25,403 bases of DNA, taken from the IMG/VR virus record IMGVR_UViG_3300037461_000726, positions 66,973-92,375 of that record; one strand, 5' to 3'. Numbering within the stretch: the stretch's first letter is position 1; each line of letters opens with the position of its first letter. Shown in pieces: positions 7,862 through 21,220 of this stretch. The translations under genes were made by a program, and so were the position numbers. The DNA comes from a virus. The notes beneath the pieces are model-generated. The model searched no databases. It saw only the letters and a list, made by a program, of their open reading frames with translations, and was not told the DNA's origin.

Positions 7862-8466
7862 GCAAAACGACTGAAGAATATTTATTAAGAATAACAAGTC
7901 AATATCAAAATTCTACTAATTTTTTAAATTGGTTGAGTAAGCCCATTAATTTGTTACAAGAATTGGTTTCTTGTGCGGAACAATTGCCGCAAGCTTTTGA
8001 CCTTGATGAAGCTGTTGGAGCGCAGTTGGACACGCTGGGTGTTCTTATAGGACAAAGTAGAACCCTTCCCTTTGACCCCACGGACGGCTCTTCTTCCAGT
8101 CTTGATGATGCAACGTATAGAACAATTTTGAAGTTGAAAACTATGACCAACTATTGGGATGGTTCTTTAGGAACAATATATGATGCATGGAATTCGTTAT
8201 TTACAGAAGCTTCATTAAGAATAATAGACCATCAAAACATGACTGCGGATGTGGTTATAACAGGGGAAATGTCTCAGATAGTTTTGGATATGATTTACAA
8301 TGACATGGTGTTACCACGACCAGAAGGAGTTAGGTATTTTTACGGGTCTGAAGCACCGCCGACTACAGCAAAATGGTTTACACTTTTGGATGACCCTGAT
8401 ACGGAAGAGTACACAGAGTATGAGGACGGGTTTGATTTAGGGTATTGGGATACTTCAATTACATAA
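7858..8466 (+). CDS. DUF2612-like baseplate wedge protein
   Basis: FDLDEAVGAQLDTLG..IGQSR, LDDATYR..LK....N.WDG and D.QNMT..LPRPEGV. ATGA overlap with the J gene. Confidence 0.85.
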   Translation: MSKTTEEYLLRITSQYQNSTNFLNWLSKPINLLQELVSCAEQLPQAFDLDEAVGAQLDTLGVLIGQSRTLPFDPTDGSSSSLDDATYRTILKLKTMTNYWDGSLGTIYDAWNSLFTEASLRIIDHQNMTADVVITGEMSQIVLDMIYNDMVLPRPEGVRYFYGSEAPPTTAKWFTLLDDPDTEEYTEYEDGFDLGYWDTSIT

Positions 8467-8481
8467 AATAAGGAGAATATT

Positions 8482-9780
8482 ATGGCAACAAATAGTTTTT
8501 TAGAATTTGATTATGGTCGAAATAACATAGGCTCTTCCTCCACTTATGACACATTAAGAGCTACTGGTTTTGTAAGAGGAAAAGCATCTGCGGCAATGTT
8601 TAATAGAGTGTTGCAACAGGTGAGTGTTATGGTTGCTGCCTTGGGAGAAGCTTTTAAAAACAAGGGCTACGATATGACTCCTTATGGGACGTATTCAACC
8701 TTGGTTGCCACTTTGCAAAATATGGTTTTATTGCCTGAGTTACAAGCCAGTTATTCGACAACCGTAGCAATGAATGCTGCAATCTCTGCATGTTTACAAG
8801 GTACCGATTCAATTATTCCAGCCGGTGATTGGAAAGGTCCTTATGGAACACAGACTTGGGTATTGGCCCAAATTAGGGATGCCATTGCCGGTTCGGAATC
8901 AGGTGTGACCTTATATCAGGTTGACCAAGAAATAGAAAGATTGGTAAATGTTCCAGCCGGTTATTTAAAGGATTATGCTTTACAGACTTGGGTAACAAAT
9001 ACGGCAATCCCTGCTGCAATCACAAATGATAGTCTGGCAGGAGCAAGCAATGTAAAGGCACCGACTCAGTATGCTGTAATACAATACCTAACAAGTACGT
9101 ATTTATCTACGATTGATGGCCGGGTTTCATTGATGTTACCAAATACTGCGTTAACTGATGCAGAGACTGATGCAGTAAAAGGAGCAACCCGACTTCAAAT
9201 AGTGACATATATTTTAGGTAAAATAAATTCGGTTACGGCGTTTAGCCCTACAGGAACAAAGGTACCGACTGAAAAGATTATCTACGATTATTGGAATCCT
9301 AGAGTTTCAGCAAAGGCAGATGCAGCAGAAGTAGGAACATTATTGTCTGGAAAATTGTCTAAGACATCCGATATTGCTACGAATGCATATGATAGTACCC
9401 AAGTGGATAAGTGGTTGTCTCCAAAAGTGTTAGTAAATTCGTTCACCTCTAGTAGAGGAAGTGGTTATCAAAAGTTGCCTGGAGGGTTGGTTTTAATTTG
9501 GGGTTCTTTTATGATAAATAAAGCGGATGAATTGCAGGAAAAACCTGTATCATTTCCAACAATTCCGGGGGGTCTCACCGCTTGTTATTCTGTGGTGTTA
9601 AGTGGTAATGTATTTGAAACGGCTGATTCAAACGATTGGGCTGGAATAGCGGTTGCATCAATTAATACTTCTGGGTTTGTGTATTGTTGGGGGGCGAGAG
9701 GAACGGCAGGAAGTCCTCCTACTAATTGGTTTAAATATACAACGATATATTACATGGCAATTGGGTTGAGTGCAAGTTAA
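8482..9780 (+). CDS. Tail fibre protein with C-terminal gp53-like domain
   Basis: N-terminal attachment motif ATNSFL..R.TGF..G.AS..FNRVLQQ.S.M.AAL. Internal PT...V..Y-type repeats. C-terminus GYQKLPGGLVLIWG..VSFPT..YYMAIG. AAGGAG RBS. Confidence 0.8.
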   Translation: MATNSFLEFDYGRNNIGSSSTYDTLRATGFVRGKASAAMFNRVLQQVSVMVAALGEAFKNKGYDMTPYGTYSTLVATLQNMVLLPELQASYSTTVAMNAAISACLQGTDSIIPAGDWKGPYGTQTWVLAQIRDAIAGSESGVTLYQVDQEIERLVNVPAGYLKDYALQTWVTNTAIPAAITNDSLAGASNVKAPTQYAVIQYLTSTYLSTIDGRVSLMLPNTALTDAETDAVKGATRLQIVTYILGKINSVTAFSPTGTKVPTEKIIYDYWNPRVSAKADAAEVGTLLSGKLSKTSDIATNAYDSTQVDKWLSPKVLVNSFTSSRGSGYQKLPGGLVLIWGSFMINKADELQEKPVSFPTIPGGLTACYSVVLSGNVFETADSNDWAGIAVASINTSGFVYCWGARGTAGSPPTNWFKYTTIYYMAIGLSAS

Positions 9781-9799
9781 TTTAAAGGAGATATCCTGA

Positions 9800-10114
9800 A
9801 TGGAAGATGATTTGAAAGATTTAGCAGAGACGATTGCGAGCAGAATAAATAGTTCTCCTAGGGAAAGTTCTTTAACAGTGAAGTGGGCCGTTGTCTTTAT
9901 GATTTTAGTTGGCCTATTTGCTTTTCTGTTTGGTGGTTTTGTTACCAACAGGTATGACATTGGTAGAATACAAGAAATTGATAAAGCTCAAAGTGAAAGA
10001 ATGGATAGGATGGAAATATCAATCTCAAGATTTGAAGCCACTCAAGCAGAAATGAGGACGTTGGTTGGCGAAATTCGATTTGACCAACAGAGAAGACAAT
10101 TAAAGGAGAGATAA
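9800..10114 (+). CDS. Single-pass membrane protein with C-terminal coiled coil (possible holin-associated/antiholin)
   Basis: Hydrophobic stretch WAVVFMILVGLFAFLFGGFV followed by a charged helical tail. AAGGAG RBS. Function inferred from location only. Confidence 0.55.
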   Translation: MEDDLKDLAETIASRINSSPRESSLTVKWAVVFMILVGLFAFLFGGFVTNRYDIGRIQEIDKAQSERMDRMEISISRFEATQAEMRTLVGEIRFDQQRRQLKER

Positions 10115-10116
10115 AC

Positions 10117-10611
10117 ATGTTATTCTGCAAAAAATTAGTTGATAAAATTAAAGGAGTAAAGGAAAAGCAATTAGATGAAAAAATACAATGTCTCCTGTTA
10201 AAAATCGCCAAAGCTAATAAGGAAATGACCAGATACAAAACATTCTGGTTAAATTCAAGAGAGGCTTTTTTGCTTTTGAGAATTGAAATGGATGATGATG
10301 TATTAATTGGTAACATATTAGATGCGAATCCATCCGCTTGCTCCTTATATGGGTACACCATGGAAGAAATAACAAAGCTGACAATTATGGATTTGACGGC
10401 TGAACCTGAGGGAACAAGACAAACTTATTCATCCAAGACGGAGTTTGTTCCTTTCCGGTACCATAAAAATAAAGATGGAACAAAGTTTTTAATTAATGCC
10501 AGTCTGACTTATTTTCAAGATAACGGTAATGGGGAAGTGGCAGCATTAATTATTCGTCCGGTGGCTGAACATAGAAGCAAAAATGGAACACCAAAAGATA
10601 GGCAAGCATAA
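10117..10611 (+). CDS. Stand-alone PAS (sensory box) domain protein
   Basis: RYKTFWLNSREAFLLL..GNILDANPSACSLYGYTMEEITKLTIMDL..YHKNKDGTKFLINASLT..ALIIRP is a classic PAS/PAC signature. N-terminal helical segment, no output domain. AAGGAG RBS. Confidence 0.85.
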   Translation: MLFCKKLVDKIKGVKEKQLDEKIQCLLLKIAKANKEMTRYKTFWLNSREAFLLLRIEMDDDVLIGNILDANPSACSLYGYTMEEITKLTIMDLTAEPEGTRQTYSSKTEFVPFRYHKNKDGTKFLINASLTYFQDNGNGEVAALIIRPVAEHRSKNGTPKDRQA

Positions 10612-10623
10612 AAGGAGGGAGTT

Positions 10624-11067
10624 ATGTGGATTGCATTTATAATCATTTTAGTAATAGGTGTGGCGGTTGGTTTTTATCTCATAGGGAAAAAGGCCGATGA
10701 ACTTCCTAAGAAGGACAAGCCTGTTGTGGACCCGGTTGTACCCCCGGTTGTACCCCCGGTTGTACCCCCGGTTGTACCTTGTGTTGATTGCGAAAAGAAA
10801 ATATCGGTTACTCTTAGGCCGGACAACTCGTCTTTCCCCGATATTCAACAGGATAAGATTTGTGGGGCAACGCAAACAATTTATGCGGAAGTGGTGTCTG
10901 TTGGCATTTCATGTAATTGTTTTGTATATAAATGGACAAGGAATGGAGTAATTGCCCCGGTACAAAGTTCGTATCTTCCGAAACAGTATTTTAGAACGGG
11001 GGAGACGATAAGTGTTATTGTTTCAGCAGAGGGAGTGGAGGCAACAGCAACAGCAAAAGTTCTCTGA
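10624..11067 (+). CDS. Membrane-anchored protein: N-terminal TM helix, (PPVV)n linker, Cys-containing Ig-like domain
   Basis: MWIAFIIILVIGVAVGFYLIG TM helix, PVVDPVVPPVVPPVVPPVVP linker, CVDC, then YKWTRNG..G.TISVIV. AGGAGG RBS. Confidence 0.7.
   Translation: MWIAFIIILVIGVAVGFYLIGKKADELPKKDKPVVDPVVPPVVPPVVPPVVPCVDCEKKISVTLRPDNSSFPDIQQDKICGATQTIYAEVVSVGISCNCFVYKWTRNGVIAPVQSSYLPKQYFRTGETISVIVSAEGVEATATAKVL
10731..10778 (+). repeat. 12-bp tandem repeat CCCCCGGTTGTA (3 perfect copies plus a partial copy) encoding PPVV
   Basis: Perfect copies at 10741-10752, 10753-10764 and 10765-10776. Partial copy at 10731-10740. Confidence 0.95.
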
Positions 11068-11123
11068 CCTGATACATGTAAGAAAATTGCCAGTTAGGCA
11101 ATTAAAAATAAAAGGAGAGGGTT

Positions 11124-11501
11124 ATGATAGCATTTATTCAAAAATATTTAATTTATGGGCTGTTAGCTGTGATTGTAATGTTATCTGTCTTCGGAACGAT
11201 TCAATATATCAGGGTCCTTTCTCAGAAGACAACTATTGTAAAGCATGAAGCCACTATAGACGACCTTCACAAAACTCAGGCTGCGTTGATGGGTCAGGTG
11301 GCTGATTATGAGATACAGGTAAAGAAATTAAAACAAATACAAAAGAAGGTGCAGACAATTAGTAATAGTACCGCGACATACCAAGCACAAATAAAGTTGT
11401 TAAAAACAAAATGTAAATTGGAGGTAGGTGATGATAAGATACTCAATGCTCCTATTATTAATTTTAACAATGGTGGGCTGCAGTTATCTGTGCCCAAGTA
11501 G
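11124..11501 (+). CDS. Inner-membrane spanin (Rz-like)
   Basis: N-terminal TM helix followed by a coiled coil. Its 3' end overlaps a lipoprotein gene in another frame. AAGGAGAGG RBS. Confidence 0.7.
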   Translation: MIAFIQKYLIYGLLAVIVMLSVFGTIQYIRVLSQKTTIVKHEATIDDLHKTQAALMGQVADYEIQVKKLKQIQKKVQTISNSTATYQAQIKLLKTKCKLEVGDDKILNAPIINFNNGGLQLSVPK

Positions 11502-11682
11502 AGTAGCAGTTCAAAAGCCAACAATGAAGGCTTGTGTGAAGCCTATAAGACCAGTTCTGCCGTTGGTGGACCCTAAAGAAGAATTGTGTAAACAACAGCA
11601 AGCACAAATTCTTATGTTACTTGACTATTCTATGAAACTAGAAACATCATGGGATTGTTGGGAGGAGGGAGAAACAAAATGA
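11431..11682 (+). CDS. Outer-membrane spanin lipoprotein (Rz1-like)
   Basis: Signal peptide with lipobox LTMVGC, Pro-rich KPIRPVLPLVDP and extra Cys residues. GGAGG at 11420-11424 lies before ATG 11431. Overlaps the Rz-like gene. Confidence 0.7.
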   Translation: MIRYSMLLLLILTMVGCSYLCPSRVAVQKPTMKACVKPIRPVLPLVDPKEELCKQQQAQILMLLDYSMKLETSWDCWEEGETK

Positions 11683-11987
11683 GAAAACAAGGATTAGCTT
11701 ATTTAAAAGAAACTTTGGAAAGGAACAGAGTATCAGGTATCCTTTTACTTATGATTGTATGTTGTATTTTTGTAATCCCGCACGAAGCAAGGCTTGGCTT
11801 ATTGGGATTGTTTACAACTAAATTAATGGGCGTTACTTTAGGAATTTTGATTGCCCATTTTGTTCGATTGTTTTTGTTTCCTTATTTGGAGTTAGAAACT
11901 TTAATAAGGGAACACCATTGGCCGGGGGTTATTTTTCTTGCTGGTTGGTATTGCACAATTGTTTACTGTTTCGCGATGGGCGGGTAA
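11679..11987 (+). CDS. Putative holin (3 TM helices, resembles superfamily VI holins)
   Basis: KL.GVTLG..IAHFVR.FLFPY motif and three hydrophobic segments, directly before the SLT endolysin. GGAGGAGG RBS and ATGA overlap support start 11679. Confidence 0.65.
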   Translation: MRKQGLAYLKETLERNRVSGILLLMIVCCIFVIPHEARLGLLGLFTTKLMGVTLGILIAHFVRLFLFPYLELETLIREHHWPGVIFLAGWYCTIVYCFAMGG

Positions 11988-11990
11988 CAC

Positions 11991-12671
11991 ATGGAGCTAA
12001 GGCTGGGGGTTATTATTGCAGTTATAATGGGGTTGATATTCTTTTGTTTATCTAAAGCGTACCCATTAGACCGTTGCACATCTCTTACTCAAGATGTTCG
12101 CGTTGAACACACCAAATATTTTGGTATCCAATTTCCTTGGTGGTATGGAGTCGGCCAATTAAAAACAGAGTCTGCTTGTAGAACGAACATTACAGCTTTT
12201 GATGCAGGAATGGGCGTAGCTCAATTTATGCCTAAGACTTCTCAGTACATACAGTCTTTGATGGGCGAGTCCCTTGACCCATACAACCCGAAACAGGCGA
12301 TTAGAATGCAAGCCTTTTATATGAACCGGATTCACACAACGGAAAATTGGACTTCGTTACTCTGGATTGACTACCAAATTTATAACGGGGGAAAAAGCAC
12401 TCTTTACAAAGAATGTCAAAGAGCAGGGGAAACAGAATGGAACGCGATGAAGAAGCAGTGTAAAAGAAAAAAGATACAATTGAAGTCTGGCATTTTGGAT
12501 TTGTGTGAAGTTAATTACGATTACAGTAAGAAGGTTGAAAAGTACGGCAATTTGTATCGGCAAGGAGAAGATTATGTTGGTTATTGGGCTGCGTTGCCGG
12601 TAAAGCAAAATAAACCAGAAGCGTACACTTCTATGTTTTGGGAATACGTAAAACTTGTTTTAGGAATATAA
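11991..12671 (+). CDS. Endolysin, lytic transglycosylase (SLT family) with N-terminal signal/SAR segment
   Basis: Catalytic TES, GVAQFMP.T and YNGG motifs. Hydrophobic N-terminus LGVIIAVIMGLIFFCL. Confidence 0.85.
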   Translation: MELRLGVIIAVIMGLIFFCLSKAYPLDRCTSLTQDVRVEHTKYFGIQFPWWYGVGQLKTESACRTNITAFDAGMGVAQFMPKTSQYIQSLMGESLDPYNPKQAIRMQAFYMNRIHTTENWTSLLWIDYQIYNGGKSTLYKECQRAGETEWNAMKKQCKRKKIQLKSGILDLCEVNYDYSKKVEKYGNLYRQGEDYVGYWAALPVKQNKPEAYTSMFWEYVKLVLGI

Positions 12672-12672
12672 A

Positions 12673-13173
12673 ATGAGGCCCCTATTGGTAGTAGGACGGG
12701 CCATGAGATGGTCTGTTGAACTTGAAAAAATAAAAGAACTTATTGACGAGTTTGATGTGATGGCGGTGGGTGAAGCATGCCCTTATGAAGGAAAAGTAAA
12801 GTACATGGTTACCTATCACCCAACCGACATCCCTATGTACAAGAAAAAAAGAGAGATATTAGGAGGTAGTACAAATTATACAGTAATAGGACATTTACCT
12901 AAGCCTGGAGTTGACATGATAGAGCCCCACGTACCCCCCACAGGGTCCTCTGCCTTGTTAGGTGTCTCTGCTGGAATAAGATTAGGCTACACTAAAATTA
13001 TTCTTTGCGGGTGCCCAATGGAAGGGGCCAATAAGGGAGGGTTTCAGCCTTATGACCATTTCCAAAAAGGTTGGGTAGCAAGGAAAAAAGAAGTAGAGCC
13101 CTATGTAAGGTCTATGTCTGGATGGACAAAACAATTATTAGGAGAGCCAACTAAGGAATGGCTAAATCAATAA
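12673..13173 (+). CDS. Glycosylation-cluster protein, Maf/DUF115-like putative transferase
   Basis: LLVVG..DVMAV..GSSAL.GV..G..LGY.KIILCG.PM resembles the Maf/GT42-like motif set. Confidence 0.5.
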   Translation: MRPLLVVGRAMRWSVELEKIKELIDEFDVMAVGEACPYEGKVKYMVTYHPTDIPMYKKKREILGGSTNYTVIGHLPKPGVDMIEPHVPPTGSSALLGVSAGIRLGYTKIILCGCPMEGANKGGFQPYDHFQKGWVARKKEVEPYVRSMSGWTKQLLGEPTKEWLNQ

Positions 13174-13187
13174 AAAGGAGAAAGAAA

Positions 13188-13781
13188 ATGTTGGATATGG
13201 AACACCAAAACAAGTTTAAAACCGTTTGGGCCAAAGGGGATTATAGAAGAGGGTCAACTGCATTAAGAATGTTGGATTTCATCTTGAATACGATTCCATA
13301 TACAATGTCAATTAATGATTACGGTTGTGGAACAGGAAGACTTGAAGTAGCGATGATGCAAACGAGACCTGTACAAAAAATAACCATGATTGATATCACC
13401 GAAACAGCACTTGAAAATGAAGCGATGGAATTTATTTCCAATCCCATTACAAATTTAAGCTTTATAACCGCCGATTTACAAGACCTAAGTCAAGTGCCAC
13501 ACGCCGATTGGGGCATTTGTATCAATACATTGATGACGGTCCAAGCGGATAAATTGGATAAGATTCTTGCTGAAATAAAGAGAACTTGCAAAAACTTGAT
13601 AGTTGAAATGTACGATTTATCTGACAAGAGATTAGGTATGGACTTAACAACCGTTAAAAAGAACAAAATAGAGTGGACAGAAAAACTTGCTGAATATTGG
13701 ACTGACGTGGCTTTTCAACAAAGCAAAGAATCACCCCATCGATACATATTTATTTGTAAGGAAGCCGTCAGTAAGGAATAA
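13188..13781 (+). CDS. Class I SAM-dependent methyltransferase
   Basis: Motif I INDYGCGTGR, plus ITMIDI and FITADL. AGGAG RBS at 13176-13180 supports ATG 13188. Confidence 0.8.
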   Translation: MLDMEHQNKFKTVWAKGDYRRGSTALRMLDFILNTIPYTMSINDYGCGTGRLEVAMMQTRPVQKITMIDITETALENEAMEFISNPITNLSFITADLQDLSQVPHADWGICINTLMTVQADKLDKILAEIKRTCKNLIVEMYDLSDKRLGMDLTTVKKNKIEWTEKLAEYWTDVAFQQSKESPHRYIFICKEAVSKE

Positions 13782-13801
13782 ACAATTAAAGGGAAGAAAA
13801 G

Positions 13802-14407
13802 ATGAATAAGATTCATGTTGTAATGCCTTTTCATCGGAGGCACCTGATTGAGGACTTAGTAAAGGTTTTTGGAAAAGAAAGACTCAATCTATTAGTTACC
13901 CCGGAACAATTCATTGATTGGAACAAAGGTTGGCCCACGCCAATCGTTGTTTCAGTTCCTACAAACAAAAGACATGACCTTTGTTATCATAAGATAAATT
14001 ACTTTATCCGAACTAAAGGGATAATTGATAATGATTATTATTGGGGAATGTGTGACGATGACTCTGTGGAAGAAAACGTTATTCCCGCGATTCAAGAAAT
14101 GAACGATGACATAATATTCATCTCCATGAAAAGGGGTGACAATATAGTTACAGAAAACCTTTCCCCAACTTCATGGCACCCGACTAACACATTGATAGCT
14201 TGCCCTGAGTTGTCTCGTCCATATGACATTGGGCTGGAGCAAATGATTATTAAAGGTCATATTTTTAAAAGACTAATTTACAACGTAAATAGTAGTTATG
14301 CTGACGGTTTGATGGGAGCAGAGTTAAGTAGACATTATAAAGTTAGATATGAACCTGATTTATTTGTTTTATTCAATTGGTTTCAAGAAGGGAGATGGAA
14401 TAAATGA
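13802..14407 (+). CDS. GT-A fold (GT2-like) glycosyltransferase
   Basis: IHVVMPFHR start strand, YYWGMCDDD DxD motif and later ADG motif. Confidence 0.65.
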   Translation: MNKIHVVMPFHRRHLIEDLVKVFGKERLNLLVTPEQFIDWNKGWPTPIVVSVPTNKRHDLCYHKINYFIRTKGIIDNDYYWGMCDDDSVEENVIPAIQEMNDDIIFISMKRGDNIVTENLSPTSWHPTNTLIACPELSRPYDIGLEQMIIKGHIFKRLIYNVNSSYADGLMGAELSRHYKVRYEPDLFVLFNWFQEGRWNK

Positions 14408-15066
14408 AGACACTGCTTATCGACCAGCCGGGGAGATTTGGAGACATAATAATTTGTTTGCCGATAGCGAAATGGTATTCGCAATGGTATAGCGTAGATT
14501 GGCTGTGTCCTGAGAGATTTCATTCCATATTTGAAAATATAGAGTATTGTAGGCCGGTGATGGAAACTGACAAGAACTCTTATACTGAGATTGTTGATAT
14601 AAGTTTCGGGATTAACATGGGTACGGAAGTGGAAGATTGGTGGCAAAAAACGAGAAATCATTTGTTCAGTTTTGTTGAAGGAAAATATATAAAGGCCGGT
14701 GTTCCTCTGGAAGAACGATGGAAACTTGAATGGACAAGAAATAAAGATAAAGAGCTGGCTTTGTACGAATTTGTTACCAAAAAACATGGATATACATACA
14801 ACCTAGTTCATGAAAAATCGGAGGGGAGATTTGAAATAAATATCCCGGTTGAAAATAAGGTTGTTTTTGAACCTATCGAAGGGTATAGCATTTTTGATTG
14901 GTACACAGTAATAAACTATGCAAAAGAAATACATTGCATTGACAGTGTTCTTTGTAATTTAGTTGAGGTGGTCATGAATTGGGCCAAACCAAAATTTTAC
15001 TATAATAATAAACCTGACCCACAATGGAATAAGACAATTATCAGAAACAACTGGAGAGTAATATGA
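14404..15066 (+). CDS. GT-B fold (GT9-like) glycosyltransferase
   Basis: QPGRFGDIIICLPIAK resembles the GT9 N-terminal GD motif. AKEIHCIDS..NL resembles the GT9 DS motif. Confidence 0.55.
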   Translation: MKTLLIDQPGRFGDIIICLPIAKWYSQWYSVDWLCPERFHSIFENIEYCRPVMETDKNSYTEIVDISFGINMGTEVEDWWQKTRNHLFSFVEGKYIKAGVPLEERWKLEWTRNKDKELALYEFVTKKHGYTYNLVHEKSEGRFEINIPVENKVVFEPIEGYSIFDWYTVINYAKEIHCIDSVLCNLVEVVMNWAKPKFYYNNKPDPQWNKTIIRNNWRVI

Positions 15067-15740
15067 AATGTTGTTGTGGCAATGAAAATTTAATTGATAG
15101 CGTTCATTCGGATTACCGGTTATGTGTTGATTGCGGGTCACTCGTTTCTCGAATAGAGCGGTTGGACAGAAGATATGATTTTGTAGGCCTGATGGAAAAG
15201 CACGTACAGGAAAGGTCCGTACTTGATTTTGAAGATAGAATACCGTTTTGGTATCAACAATTGTGTCAAACGTCACTTAAACAATCGATATTGGAAATCG
15301 GTTGCTCTCATGGCGGGTTTTTAAAGTATTGTAGAGACAACGGGTTTAAACGTTGTGTCGGAGTCGAATTAAATGAAGGGACCTGTGATTTCGCTAGAAA
15401 CACTTTTAACATTGAAATGATATGCGGCGATTTTCCTGATGTGGAGATAAACGAAAAATTTGACATAGTTTGTGGGTTCGATTTACTAGAACATTTATCG
15501 GACCCATTAAAAGCTTTAAGGAAAATGGCCAGTTTAAGTAATAAATACGTCATGATACAAATTCCCGTTTACAGTGACGAAGAACTGAGTGCTTATCCTT
15601 ATTTTGATGCGGGAATACATCTTTTTCTTCTTTCTGAAAAAGCAATCGGCCAACTTTTTGGATTGGCCGGGATAAAAATAATTTTAAGTGTTCCCGGAGC
15701 ATTTAGAAAAAATTTAACAATGATTGGAGAAAAACTATGA
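15063..15740 (+). CDS. Class I SAM-dependent methyltransferase with N-terminal Cys cluster
   Basis: ILEIGCSHGGFL, GVELN and FDIV..FDLLEHLSDP motifs. N-terminal CCCG..CVDCG. Confidence 0.85.
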   Translation: MKCCCGNENLIDSVHSDYRLCVDCGSLVSRIERLDRRYDFVGLMEKHVQERSVLDFEDRIPFWYQQLCQTSLKQSILEIGCSHGGFLKYCRDNGFKRCVGVELNEGTCDFARNTFNIEMICGDFPDVEINEKFDIVCGFDLLEHLSDPLKALRKMASLSNKYVMIQIPVYSDEELSAYPYFDAGIHLFLLSEKAIGQLFGLAGIKIILSVPGAFRKNLTMIGEKL

Positions 15741-16414
15741 AAATTGCAACTGATACAAACGGGTGCGGGATGAGCGTTGGTGGAAAGGATTTTAAAGTTT
15801 CCATTCAAGAATTAATTAAGGAAAGAAAATTCAAAAAAATCGTTGAAACAGGCACTTTTCTTGGTAAAGGTACAACTAAGATGATACTGGATGCTCTGCA
15901 GGAACACAGCCCGGAATATTCGATGGTCAGTATTGAGGTTAATCCTGAATATTTTGAGCAAGCGGTTGTTAATTTGCAGGGAAACAAGATAAGTTTGGTA
16001 AATGGGCTATCGGTCCCTAAAAACCTGTTGCCCACCGAAGAAGACATAGAGGAATTGATTGAAAATTCCAGAAATGAAGACATCTTTGTGGACCATAAAG
16101 AAGAAGAAAGATTAGTGCTCTATTTAAATGAAACAAAATTCGATGTTGAAGACGATTGTTTGGGATGGGTGCTATCATCTTTTAATTTTCAGCCCGACTT
16201 GGTTGTTTTAGACAGCGCGGGGCATATGGGTTTTGTAGAATTTGAATATGTCCTGTCTTTACTGGAAGGACCCTGTGTGTTTGTTTTAGATGATGTTTAT
16301 CACATCAAACATAACAGAAGTTTAAAGATGATGCAACAAGACAAGAGATTTAACATCTTAAAATTGTCTCCAGAGAAATTTGGGTTTGTAATAGCGGAGT
16401 ATTTATGGAAATAA
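15737..16414 (+). CDS. Putative methyltransferase (O-methyltransferase-like fold)
   Basis: IVETGTFLGKGTT, SIEVN, DLVVLDS and FVLDD motifs. Confidence 0.65.
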   Translation: MKIATDTNGCGMSVGGKDFKVSIQELIKERKFKKIVETGTFLGKGTTKMILDALQEHSPEYSMVSIEVNPEYFEQAVVNLQGNKISLVNGLSVPKNLLPTEEDIEELIENSRNEDIFVDHKEEERLVLYLNETKFDVEDDCLGWVLSSFNFQPDLVVLDSAGHMGFVEFEYVLSLLEGPCVFVLDDVYHIKHNRSLKMMQQDKRFNILKLSPEKFGFVIAEYLWK

Positions 16415-17559
16415 TACCTTTTAAGGAAATAGAGGTTTTAGGTAATCCTCTCGATACGGAAAACAGAGACGTAAACTTTGTTTTTAAGCACAAAGGATTG
16501 TTGTTCCGTTTAATTATAAATTCTTGCGTTGAAGAAAACAGGTGGTTTGGTATAAAGGAATTCGTAAAAGGAAAAGAGTTTGGCGAATTGATGAGAAGAA
16601 AATACATACCAAGACACGAAATAACATCTCTTAAATTGGAAGGATACTTGGACGGTGATATATACAGAATTTTGGATGAGGTATTTTGTTTCTCTGATGA
16701 GCACAGAACCATAGGCCAAAAATTGGACTGTTTAAAATTGATTTGTAATATACAAATTCTTTTAGAGGAAATAGGCAGCGGCTATTGTTTAACGGACGTG
16801 CATCATCTTCAATTTGGGTTTAACTATTCCTTTCCCGTTTACATAGACATAGGGTCGTTTTGTGAAAACAGGAAAGTAGGGATGTTGGTGGAGCATTTTA
16901 ACAAGATGCTTTTTCCTTTTGGGCTTAAATTTGATGGGGATTGGGGCCGTCTGTTAACTGAAATAGAAAATTACCAAATCACTCTGGGCAAGGGAGAATG
17001 GGGGGAATACACAAATACCGCGCTATTTGAAGAATGCACTATGGCGCATGACTTTGTGAAAGAAAAAGCACACAACAAAACATTTATGGATGTCGGTTGT
17101 AATACAGGAGGGGCGGCCAAATTCTTCAATAACAGAGGATATAATGTCATTGCAATTGACTATGAAGAGTACGCATTAAACATGTTATATAAAGACAGCG
17201 CCGGGAGAAAAGTTTTTTGTTTAAAAGCGGACCTTACAGAAAATTACGATTTGAGAAAAAAGGAAATCTCTGCAGATGTGGTATTTTGCTCCTCAGTAAC
17301 ACATCACTTATGTAGAAAAGGGTTTTATTTTGACAAACAGGCTGCTTTATGGAACATTTTTTGTAAGAAATTTTTAATTGTCGAGTACATTGATGTTATC
17401 GATTTTCATGTGTCGCAATGGACAGAGATAGATGGCAGGTATTCCAGAAAGAAATTTTTAAATTCATTAAAAGCTGAGTGGGAGGTAATAAAAATGTTAC
17501 CTGAGAATGAAAGGGAAAGAAATTGGTATTTTCTGCAGAAAAGAGGAAGTAATGGATAA
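16405..17559 (+). CDS. NoeA-like protein: kinase-like N-terminal region plus class I methyltransferase
   Basis: N-terminal LTDVH..QF..PVYIDIGSF. C-terminal FMDVGCNTG, IAID, DVVFCSSVTHHL and LIVEY. Confidence 0.65.
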   Translation: MEIIPFKEIEVLGNPLDTENRDVNFVFKHKGLLFRLIINSCVEENRWFGIKEFVKGKEFGELMRRKYIPRHEITSLKLEGYLDGDIYRILDEVFCFSDEHRTIGQKLDCLKLICNIQILLEEIGSGYCLTDVHHLQFGFNYSFPVYIDIGSFCENRKVGMLVEHFNKMLFPFGLKFDGDWGRLLTEIENYQITLGKGEWGEYTNTALFEECTMAHDFVKEKAHNKTFMDVGCNTGGAAKFFNNRGYNVIAIDYEEYALNMLYKDSAGRKVFCLKADLTENYDLRKKEISADVVFCSSVTHHLCRKGFYFDKQAALWNIFCKKFLIVEYIDVIDFHVSQWTEIDGRYSRKKFLNSLKAEWEVIKMLPENERERNWYFLQKRGSNG

Positions 17560-20500
17560 GATAATTTTATTTACGTCATATTTTTGTCCTAAAAATGAAA
17601 TAAGGCAAAAGGAAATTGACGATTGTTTACAAAAAAACATAAACAACCCTTTAATAAATGAAGTTTATTTATTCTTGGACGATAAATTTTTACCTAAAAA
17701 GTTTAAATCCAATAAGGTGAAAATCGCTAAGTCCGAATGTAGGCCAACTTATAAAGATTACATCGAATTCATAAATAAAAATAAGAAGTTTGAAACCTCC
17801 TATAACATCATATCCAACACTGACATCTACTTTGATGAGAGCTTAAAACTGATTCGAAAAATAGAGATGGACAATACTTGTATTGTCCTTGACAGATGGG
17901 ATGTAAAGGAAAATGGAGGGGCCGAATTTATAGATTCATCGGGCTCTCAAGATGTGTGGATTTTTAAGGGCAAGGTAAAGGAAGAACTAGGCGAATTGTC
18001 TGATTTTCCCTTAGGAAAAGGTTGTTGTGATAATGTCTTTTTATATAACATTTTTATAACAGATTACTACGCCGGGTGTCCAGCTTTGGATATTAAAGCT
18101 TACCATTTACACATTTCCAAATACAGAACTTATCAAGAGTACACACTGGAAAATGGACATGGCCCGGATAGGGTACTTGGGAATCACATGTACATAGCTC
18201 CTACAGGATTTCAAAAAGTGTTTAGGAAAGAGTATTATGACACTCATCATCCTTTATATTTGAAGAAGCACAGAAATGATTACGGGTTTAAACTCTCTTC
18301 CGAGATAATTTTACATCCGTGGAATTTAGAAGAAAAAAGGATATTTGAAGGAAGAGAAAAGAAAATACTGGAACAGTGGAAAAAACAGGAAGAAGAAATT
18401 TTTATGTACGCGGCGGTTAAAAGGCCCAAAACAGTTTCCTTATTTACGTCCTATTGGAATACGGGCAATGAGGAAAGACAGGAAGAAATTCTTCTTTGTC
18501 TGGAGAACAACATTAGGAACCAAAGAATCGATAAAATATATCTGTTATGTGAAACAGAACTTGAAATTTCTGATAGTAAAGTTAAAGTAATACCGGTAAA
18601 GAAAAGACCTACATACAATGACTTCTTTAAAGTAATGAATGAAGTTAGGTCAGAAGTAAGTATTTTAGCTAATGCGGACATTTATTTTGACGATACGTTG
18701 GAACAAGTTAAATATATTAAGGGAAACGATTGCTTTGCCCTTTCAAGATGGGATGACAAGGAAGACGGGCAAAGTATTTTATATGACCATGCCGATAGTC
18801 AGGACGTGTGGATTTTTAGAGGTATAATACACAATAAAATAAAAGCCGATTTTGAAATGGGTCAATTGGGCTGCGACAATAGATTGGCCCATGAGTTGTA
18901 TGTTGTAGGTTACGGCGTTTCAAATCCGGCGTTTACAATCAGGGCGCATCATGTTCATAAAATTGAAAACAAACATGCCATAGAAAATAGGGTCCCTGAG
19001 CCTTATAAACATGTACATTTAAAAGAAATAGTACCGTTTCTTTCGATAGTGACAAGACATTATTATAAAAGGCCTTGGTCGTTTAAACAATGTTGTGATA
19101 GCGTTTTAGCGCAAGATGACCAAGACTATGAACATGTGGTAATAAGAGACGATGTGGGTATCGGCTCTCATAAAGCGAATAGGTTATTTGTTAATAACAT
19201 GGATGAGGTGAATGGTCGATATGTGTTTATGTTAGACGATGATGACATGTTAACAAATGAAAAGTTTATAAGTGACTTAAAAGAGGTAGTTGAGAAACAT
19301 GACCCGGACATTATTTTCGTTAAAATGTTGGCCGGTAAATTGGTAATTCCGACTGAAAAAGTCTGGGGTAAGGAGGAGATATTAAGCGGTCATGTGGGAA
19401 CTTCCTGTGTAGTTGTTAAGAACAGTTTATGGAAAGAATGTATAGATAGCTTTTCCGAAGAGCAAATAGGAGATTTCCGGTTCATTCAAAATGTGTTCGA
19501 AAAAACCAAAAGCGTAGTTTGGTTGAATGAGTTGTATAGCAAAACTATAAGGGTAAGTAACGGAGCCCCTGAGATGGAGGTTGAAATGAACGAAAAAATC
19601 ACAGGGTTAGTAGTGACACACAACACTAAAGAGTTGATTGAAAGGGCCTACAATTCTGTAAGAAGATTTCATCATAACATGAAAATAATCATAATAGATG
19701 GCTCCAGTGGAGACAACCCTTGCTACAATTACGTAGAAAGCTTGGCAGATGAAAATACTAGGGTTTTCCACGCAAAAACAAACATAGGTCACGGCCATGG
19801 ATTGAGCGCCGGGATTGAATACGTTGATACACCATACGTTTTAATTTTTGATTCAGATGTTGAAGTGATAAATTCTCCTGTTGAAGAGATGTTAAAATTA
19901 ATGGAGGATGACACCTGGGGAGTTGGGTATTCTGAGCCAACCGACATCGGGGGCCACGAATGGGGCTCAAGAAAAGGAGTAATGACAGAAGGGCCGATGA
20001 AATATTTACATCCTTATTTTTGTTTAATTCAGGTAAAAGAATACAGAAAATATTCGCCGTTTATTCATCACGGAGCCCCGGCAGTTCAAGCGATGCTTGA
20101 CATTTATAGAAGGGGTCTGTCAGATAAAGTGTTAAAAGAGTTTGAAGGACTAGGGCATACGTCAAGTTCCGGGTGGACATGGAAAGGAAAACCAAGCAAG
20201 TGGGTCCGTCATGACACAAGGGGAACAAGGGATGTCGTTAAAAAAAGACTAAAAAAAGAGGAAATTGAAGGAAAGTGGGATAAAATAATAGACCTAGGGC
20301 CGCAAATTCAAAATGATGAAAACATAACTTGTATTACATGCACTGGAGATAGATTATTAACTTTTTCATTGTGTAAAAGATGGATAGAAAATCAAACAGT
20401 AAAACCGAAACAATGGATTATCGTTGATGACGGAAAAACACCTTTGAACAAAGAAACTCTTCCCGCGTTTGCGAAGTATGTAAGAAGAGAACCACAATCA

Positions 20501-21220
20501 ACGGACCCGAAACATACGATGATTTTAAACATGAAGGAAGCTATAAAGCATATTGAAGGAGACAAAATAATCATCTGGGAAGATGACGAATATTACGCTC
20601 CGAAATACATTGAGGTCTTATCTAAAAAATTGGACCAATATGAAATCGTGGGAGTGGGAAGAAGCAAATATTACCATTTGGCCAATAATACTTACCATGC
20701 ACACCCAAACATGGGGCATGCTTCCTTGGCACAAACTTGCTTTAGAAAATCGTTTCTACAGGACTTTATTGATATTTTAGATGGTGATTCATTTCTAGAT
20801 ATCAGAATTTGGAAGATGATGAACGGAAATGACGTTACCCTTAAAGAAACAGGATTACACGAAAGAGTTACAAATGATAAGCGTGGTTTGATATTTAGTG
20901 ATAAAGAAGAAAGCATATATGTCGGGATGAAAGGTCTCCCCGGAAGAGACGGTATCGGGGCCGGTCATAAGGGAATGGGTACAAAAGACAGTAACAGAGA
21001 AGTATTAAGAAAATGGATTGTAAGAGAAAACGATTTTGGTCTATATAAAGGAATGATTTCAAGTGGCCCGGTTGAAAACAAGGTTATAAAGCCAGTGTCG
21101 CGGCCTGTTGTCACAAGACCGGCAACGGCACCGCAACCGTCCATTGTAAAACAGCAACCAAGTTTTGTAAGAAGACCTGAAACATTAAGAAGAGTGTCTA
21201 CTATTAGTAGGCACAGATAA
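17552..21220 (+). CDS. Multidomain glycosyltransferase with five GT-A-like domains and a basic Pro-rich tail
   Basis: Two homologous domains (N.DIYFD..RWD..SQDVWIF..CDN) followed by three GT2-like domains with LDDDD, FDSD and WEDDEYY motifs. GAGG RBS supports ATG 17552 over 17507. Confidence 0.8.
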   Translation: MDKIILFTSYFCPKNEIRQKEIDDCLQKNINNPLINEVYLFLDDKFLPKKFKSNKVKIAKSECRPTYKDYIEFINKNKKFETSYNIISNTDIYFDESLKLIRKIEMDNTCIVLDRWDVKENGGAEFIDSSGSQDVWIFKGKVKEELGELSDFPLGKGCCDNVFLYNIFITDYYAGCPALDIKAYHLHISKYRTYQEYTLENGHGPDRVLGNHMYIAPTGFQKVFRKEYYDTHHPLYLKKHRNDYGFKLSSEIILHPWNLEEKRIFEGREKKILEQWKKQEEEIFMYAAVKRPKTVSLFTSYWNTGNEERQEEILLCLENNIRNQRIDKIYLLCETELEISDSKVKVIPVKKRPTYNDFFKVMNEVRSEVSILANADIYFDDTLEQVKYIKGNDCFALSRWDDKEDGQSILYDHADSQDVWIFRGIIHNKIKADFEMGQLGCDNRLAHELYVVGYGVSNPAFTIRAHHVHKIENKHAIENRVPEPYKHVHLKEIVPFLSIVTRHYYKRPWSFKQCCDSVLAQDDQDYEHVVIRDDVGIGSHKANRLFVNNMDEVNGRYVFMLDDDDMLTNEKFISDLKEVVEKHDPDIIFVKMLAGKLVIPTEKVWGKEEILSGHVGTSCVVVKNSLWKECIDSFSEEQIGDFRFIQNVFEKTKSVVWLNELYSKTIRVSNGAPEMEVEMNEKITGLVVTHNTKELIERAYNSVRRFHHNMKIIIIDGSSGDNPCYNYVESLADENTRVFHAKTNIGHGHGLSAGIEYVDTPYVLIFDSDVEVINSPVEEMLKLMEDDTWGVGYSEPTDIGGHEWGSRKGVMTEGPMKYLHPYFCLIQVKEYRKYSPFIHHGAPAVQAMLDIYRRGLSDKVLKEFEGLGHTSSSGWTWKGKPSKWVRHDTRGTRDVVKKRLKKEEIEGKWDKIIDLGPQIQNDENITCITCTGDRLLTFSLCKRWIENQTVKPKQWIIVDDGKTPLNKETLPAFAKYVRREPQSTDPKHTMILNMKEAIKHIEGDKIIIWEDDEYYAPKYIEVLSKKLDQYEIVGVGRSKYYHLANNTYHAHPNMGHASLAQTCFRKSFLQDFIDILDGDSFLDIRIWKMMNGNDVTLKETGLHERVTNDKRGLIFSDKEESIYVGMKGLPGRDGIGAGHKGMGTKDSNREVLRKWIVRENDFGLYKGMISSGPVENKVIKPVSRPVVTRPATAPQPSIVKQQPSFVRRPETLRRVSTISRHR

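Follow-up and report, generated by a model that had tools for sequence, protein, structure and literature searches.

A putative two-gene phage module that pairs a single-span membrane protein with a stand-alone PAS protein, often beside lysis genes

Comparison of homologous loci indicates that two adjacent phage genes, here designated A and B, make up a real and previously undescribed two-gene phage module, whose tie to lysis genes is strong but not absolute. Gene A (positions 9800-10114, + strand) encodes a protein with a predicted acidic amphipathic N-terminal helix, one transmembrane (TM) helix and a coiled coil, based on an alignment of 17 homologues, TM prediction, charges and hydrophobic moment. 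Gene B (10117-10611, + strand) encodes a basic N-terminal helix followed by a stand-alone PAS domain, as judged from the Pfam family PAS_9, a 38-member alignment, AlphaFold and Foldseek.

Genomic context

The window, that is, the whole stretch of 25,403 nucleotides analysed here, is the final 25.4 kb of a 92,375-base contig (IMG/VR record IMGVR_UViG_3300037461_000726). The ends of the contig overlap by 127 bases, and hence the phage genome is a circular assembly of about 92.2 kb; it encodes baseplate and sheath-like proteins and has a myovirus-like gene set. Genes A (104 aa), B (164 aa) and C (10624-11067, 147 aa) are all located on the + strand, with 2 nt between A and B and 12 nt between B and C. 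Shine-Dalgarno sequences are found 9 nt ahead of the A start and 8 nt ahead of the B start (AAGGAG in both cases) and 5 nt ahead of the C start (AAGGAGG). A perfect 12-bp tandem repeat present in four copies (10731-10778, + strand; Tandem Repeats Finder) encodes the PVVP linker of gene C. An earlier sequence-only reading of this DNA had described these three open reading frames, their gaps, ribosome-binding sites and (PPVV)n repeat, and the open reading frame, Shine-Dalgarno and repeat checks bear this description out.

Upstream of gene A is a gene for a tail fibre protein (8482-9780, + strand; PHROG tail fibre families, E 1.6e-9, and a weak match to Gp53-like_C), and downstream of gene C follow the putative lysis genes, all on the + strand. 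The first codes for an Rz-like inner-membrane spanin (11124-11501; phrog_739, E 7.8e-4), which resembles the spanin gene of locus L001 in sequence and layout (L numbers are locus labels). The 3' end of this gene is overlapped by a gene for an Rz1-like outer-membrane lipoprotein spanin (11431-11682), with GGAGG 6 nt ahead of its ATG at 11431 and a lipobox-like MVGC after a hydrophobic stretch; a family search with this lipoprotein gave no match. Next is a multi-TM protein (11679-11987) with three hydrophobic segments and a ribosome-binding site, which gave no significant family or phage match and is a holin candidate by hydrophobicity and position only. Two starts are possible for this gene (11649-11987), ATG 11679 with AGGAGG 10 nt upstream and ATG 11649, which has no ribosome-binding site, the former being the likely one. 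The last gene (11991-12671) encodes an SLT lytic transglycosylase endolysin with an N-terminal hydrophobic signal (Pfam SLT, PHROG endolysin); its phage homologues carry endolysin annotation, and with the queries used it is the sole endolysin-like match in the genome. A promoter and terminator search of 8400-13300 gave no signal above shuffle level, which fits a single late operon. Methyltransferase and other genes follow in a run (12673-21220) that starts 1 nt past the endolysin stop.

Genes A and B as an inherited pair

A homologue of A is found directly upstream of B in every intact B locus that has upstream DNA. Across the intact loci the gap between the two genes ranges from -20 to +16 nt and falls in all three frames; a programmed A-B fusion is ruled out by this variable frame offset. 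Pairwise identities are correlated between A and B (Mantel rho 0.60 for 12 lineage representatives, 0 of 10,000 permutations), and the two gene trees, which were midpoint-rooted and do not give the ancestral position, recover the same supported clades. At the level of sequence this shows joint inheritance and not contact, as co-variation of neighbouring genes is expected from linkage alone.

Two variant lineages, one with A only and one decayed, and the complementary charges of the helices (0 to -5 for the A helix and +1 to +10 for the B helix) point to the N-terminal helix of A as a docking site for B. In L154 no PAS gene accompanies A, which has kept its C-terminal motif and has lost the N-terminal helix. 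The other variant, in L032-L034 (three assemblies whose overlapping parts are identical), is located away from lysis genes; all that is left of A is a stub of 22 residues, and B has an eroded helix, so that in L032 the two genes decayed together. A complex prediction of B (residues 1-150) with A gave a score of 0.01 and was set aside from the evidence.

Linkage to lysis genes

The linkage was counted over 12 lineages, those with both genes intact and with sufficient sequence downstream. In nine of these an endolysin gene is located -17 to 2793 nt from the A-B pair, with five loci within 25 nt; in L001, L015, L017, L018 and L027, B abuts or overlaps the endolysin start. The endolysins of the nine lineages belong to seven unrelated types, namely SLT in the window, GH108 in L001, two M15 types without mutual BLAST similarity (one in L024/L027, the other in L013/L018, L015 and L031), the putative endolysin DUF5675 in L016, phrog_894 in L017 and GH24 in L030. 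Sister lineages differ in their endolysins, with SLT in the window and GH108 in L001, and likewise GH24 in L030 and M15 in L031. Hence, A-B keeps its place as the lytic genes change, and the link has outlived endolysin swaps. The sequence-only reading suggested testing whether the three genes stay adjacent to lysis genes; A and B usually do so as a pair, and the homologues of C are located in lysis cassettes that lack A and B. That reading also had the sensor act on the neighbouring holin; a specific interaction is doubtful, as at least four mutually unrelated groups of holin candidates are found beside A-B. A 903-aa glycosyltransferase is encoded between B and the endolysin in L003/L006 and most of the L024 lineage (L024:6481-9192), and is absent from L027 (364-1301), where B overlaps the endolysin start.

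In the three remaining lineages both genes are intact and no lysis cassette lies alongside; the pair is located in the head-gene region of L010, before glycosyltransferase genes in L159, and before a radical SAM gene in the cell-like context of L022/L153, where an SLT gene lies about 4 kb upstream. The three form one clade in both trees (supports 99/95 and 95/89) and hence count as one event. It is these loci, together with the fact that the closest non-phage relatives of B are histidine kinase PAS domains with the same T/P/R/H motif, that would fit a late host-interference or superinfection-exclusion cassette, placed last in the virion operon so as to use its promoter, in which A anchors B at the membrane and B, captured from a bacterial kinase PAS domain, serves as a decoy partner of host sensor kinases. 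However, such a cassette would account neither for the abutting or overlapping endolysin starts nor for a link that persists across endolysin swaps, and the solitary A of L154 is also found among lysis genes, directly preceding a holin-like gene with a lysozyme nearby; we consider this explanation fairly unlikely. In L022 (742-8133) and L153 (4915-12479), A-B follows the SLT gene, three HU-like genes, a PLD-family gene and DprA, and precedes a B12 radical SAM gene; the setting is a 136-kb contig that has cell-like genes and may be a plasmid or an integrated element.

The slot between the tail fibre and lysis genes also takes unrelated late-operon passengers, the 903-aa glycosyltransferase being an example, which speaks against the role in lysis timing proposed below. 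At several loci the pair directly follows tail or fibre genes, four of the 17 A members have weak matches to PHROG families annotated as virion structural protein, and Ig-like domains, which gene C resembles, are common on virions. A, B or C could on these grounds be virion components, involved in tail-fibre assembly or minor structural proteins. We regard this as highly improbable, since A and C have TM helices and the pair is carried by both myovirus-like and siphovirus-like genomes with different tails. Moreover, in Cellulophaga phage phi19:1 the proteins that owe their annotation to virion mass spectrometry do not include the PAS-like analogue, which is probably gp108. Structure searches revealed that further phage PAS-like proteins exist, including this one from phi19:1 (E 1.6e-5; UniProt R9ZZL0, probably gp108 based on its length of 240 aa). 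Like A-B, gp108 is encoded after tail genes, overlapping a holin-like gene and 1.5 kb from a lysozyme gene. This uncharacterised protein differs from A-B in being one chain, which contains a coil and a weak hydrophobic segment, and sequence homology to A or B was not detected. The overlapping pair gp107-gp108 (L164:5899-6925) provides a probable analogue in a cultured phage.

Gene A

Protein A has one TM helix (residues 30-48, mean hydropathy 2.68) and a helical C-terminal part, a coil with a conserved EIRxDQxRR motif at its end in the 17-homologue alignment. One TM helix is predicted in 17 of 17 members and an amphipathic N-terminal helix in 14 (hydrophobic moment 0.54-0.72). Searches of all 17 members against Pfam and PHROG gave nothing above cut-off, with no holin family among the Pfam matches or the PHROG matches listed, and gene A is a member of no described family. 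Within 15 residues of the TM helix there are 1-5 basic residues before and 1-3 after, which is little difference; a fused TM-coil-PAS analogue would favour a C-in topology for A.

The order of an amphipathic N-terminal helix, a single TM helix and a long helix matches the layout of T4 holin T, and corresponds to the part of T that is sufficient for pores (PMC12162936; PMC8385771). Also, B is small and soluble and would bind the N-terminal helix of A in the way that RIII binds T. In contrast to the T4 proteins, A ends after its helix and lacks a periplasmic globular domain, its partner would be a PAS protein, the pairing being deduced from the sequences, and neither A nor B has a sequence match to T or RIII. 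Further, most A-B lineages encode a separate holin candidate (found in the window, L001, L015, L017, L018, L024 and L031), and A was therefore rejected as the sole holin.

A second comparison is the Mu releasin gp25 of the DUF2730 family, which like A has about 100 aa, a single TM helix and a helical C-terminal part, and is a non-holin accessory found near endolysin genes of several classes (PMC9239132). Unlike A, which has about 25 residues before its TM helix, gp25 has four, and gp25 has no PAS partner (PMC9239132). Assignment of A as a releasin was rejected: the DUF2730 match reaches 16 bits against a cut-off of 24.9 and occurs in one of the 17 members, the TM helix begins near residue 30 and not at the extreme N-terminus, and the carrier, a circular assembly of 92 kb, has a myovirus-like gene set, whereas phages with DUF2730 are transposable. 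An Rz-like inner-membrane spanin was rejected as well, with weak TM-coil matches (best E 1.4e-4), no similarity to the Rz of the same phage (probability 0.6%) and a complete Rz/Rz1 pair encoded separately. By these membership tests A falls outside the T, releasin and Rz families, and B likewise belongs to no described heme- or flavin-PAS type.

Gene B

Protein B exceeds the curated cut-off of PAS_9 (35.8 bits, cut-off 27; E 1e-8) and also matches TIGR00229. In the AlphaFold model (pLDDT 90), a helix (residues 2-46) is followed by the PAS domain and no output domain, and Foldseek assigns a probability of 1.0 to matches with many PAS structures. Profile searches retrieved 38 full-length stand-alone relatives with 37-62% identity, nearly all of them metagenomic, which score well apart from kinase-borne PAS domains. 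Ten positions are invariant in the 38-member alignment (L26, Y40, W44, N71, Y78, G79, T100, R114, H116 and F133). The phage-specific conservation peaks in the N-terminal helix (L26, K35, Y40 and W44), whereas T100, P112, R114 and H116 are common to a subfamily of bacterial kinase PAS domains. B hence looks like a captured kinase PAS domain that keeps a possible ligand site. The bacterial histidine kinase PAS domains with the same fold and T/P/R/H motif (for example PDB 3olo; L039, L092, L093, L095 and L097) differ from B in that B lacks a kinase or DNA-binding output.

The top PDB sequence match of B is the heme-PAS protein FG214 (PDB 10jx, E 2.4e-5; bioRxiv 10.64898/2026.03.15.711900). In heme PAS domains the ligand is a conserved His on F-alpha (or E-alpha), while FAD-PAS domains of the NifL/Aer type are marked by an F-alpha Trp and LOV domains by an FMN cysteine motif (PMC10468136). 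The heme-binding F-alpha His of FG214, FixL and DosP is not conserved in B: a His within residues 93-108 is present in only 8 of the 38 members and is lacking in the window protein, and the only invariant His (H116) is located on strand G-beta. A Trp at position 104 is found in just 4 of 38 members, and no Cys after E-alpha is conserved among the 38. Assignments of B as a heme-PAS (FixL/DosP/FG214 or Aer2 type), FAD-PAS or LOV protein were rejected, as the defining residues are not conserved. Oxygen or redox sensing finds no backing, in so far as it would use a known PAS cofactor with its heme, FAD or FMN ligand residues. Cys24 and Cys75 are conserved in 27 and 34 of the 38 members, respectively, with which thiol-based redox sensing would be compatible.

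The lack of a known cofactor motif, the concentration of phage-specific conservation in the N-terminal helix and the weak DUF2730 match of one A member would also fit a lysis accessory without sensing, in which the PAS domain would dimerise and delay A in the manner of a cap or chaperone, or else A itself would be an additional holin subunit or a helper similar to releasin. This is unlikely in our view, since all 38 members share T100, R114 and H116 although their identity is just 37-62%, and the strand register of LOV and heme-PAS domains would place R114 and H116 towards the cavity; as for a releasin-like helper, most partner endolysins have no SAR anchor on which it could act.

Gene C

Gene C (10624-11067) encodes an N-terminal TM helix (residues 2-23), a Pro-rich linker and a Cys-containing Ig/PKD-like domain, based on models and on structure and profile searches. 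The model is all-beta, a beta-sandwich resembling Ig/PKD domains (Atlas TM 0.65-0.71 to PKD/Ig proteins), and the PDB matches are mostly Ig domains, none reaching E 0.001. Only two full-length relatives were retrieved in an exhaustive search, one encoded after a GH108 endolysin in a Mu-like phage and the other directly after a DUF5675 gene; at these two loci A and B are absent and no PAS gene was seen. Among the A-B loci, the C profile matches only the window genome. Hence, C is an accessory in its own right, with a preference for lysis cassettes as well, and is no part of the A-B unit, and the three-gene module proposed in the sequence-only reading is reduced to two genes. Our guess, from the shape of the model, is that C is a membrane-tethered envelope-binding protein. 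In L001 (5311-5889) a TM and InlB B-repeat protein is encoded after the spanins, a membrane-anchored beta-rich lysis-cassette accessory that parallels C.

It could still be argued that A, B and C form one transmembrane sensor with C as its periplasmic arm, through which oxygen or redox state gates the holin. The tight spacing and strong ribosome-binding sites in the window genome, the presence of C homologues in lysis cassettes and the conserved Cys24 and Cys75 of B would agree with this. However, we judge it very unlikely, as C is missing beside A-B at every other locus, its homologues occur without A or B, and B has none of the conserved His, Trp or Cys residues that mark the known cofactor-binding types.

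A hypothetical lysis timer

Based on gene order and protein anatomy, we tentatively propose, at a little short of an even chance, that A-B is a ligand-responsive accessory lysis timer that works in a similar manner to T4 holin T with its antiholin RIII. The complete ligand-gated version, in which the PAS domain, captured from a kinase, would sense a metabolite inside the cell and a minimal T-like A would advance or delay the triggering of any holin present, is rather doubtful. For T4 T, an amphipathic helix, a TM helix and a periplasmic bridge helix are all that is needed for pores, and RIII binds the cytoplasmic amphipathic helix (PMC12162936). In the proposed timer, A would insert in an N-in/C-out orientation, with a cytoplasmic amphipathic helix, one TM helix and a periplasmic helix, the minimal functional layout of T. 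The soluble B could dock via its basic N-terminal helix on the acidic helix of A, as RIII does on T, and would keep A inactive or free it depending on whether the T100/R114/H116 site is occupied by a small polar ligand. Next, active A might perturb or depolarise the membrane, upon which any resident holin would trigger. Depolarisation is known to trigger holins prematurely. A general membrane effect is likelier than binding to one particular holin because the holins beside A-B are unrelated, and depolarisation by A would explain the indifference to the holin family.

Among the lysis-timing regulators compared, T4 RI and RIII respond to superinfection, and Mu gp25 releases the endolysin. If the timer proposal is true, the burst time would follow host physiology, with phages reading the chemical state of the host to decide on lysis, and A-B would be a transferable sensor compatible with unrelated holins, and a part of two genes that lends itself to tests in laboratory strains. 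If A-B is only a passenger, it still represents an undescribed phage protein family, of modest interest. No literature on a PAS protein in a lysis cassette was found, most subscription journals being outside the coverage.

Distribution and host

Searches of 50,697 GenBank phage records with A, B and the holin candidate (tblastn) gave no match, and hence we know of no carrier in culture. Scans of viral contigs with the single sequences of B and C also gave no match. In L073 (1-1328), an L018-type A gene and the start of B are joined to a CRISPR array with a 32-nt repeat, which we take to be type I-C-like, and three of the spacers match L018-L021 at 97-100%. L073 is probably an assembly chimera through a spacer located in gene B, and as such points to the array of the host. 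The repeat is absent from 401 sampled genomes of the phylum of G001, and three weak A matches in the same genomes were rejected as unrelated TM-coil proteins. The host is probably a diderm cell, since the phage encodes spanins, and judging by the sample names the habitats are mostly anaerobic or sludge.
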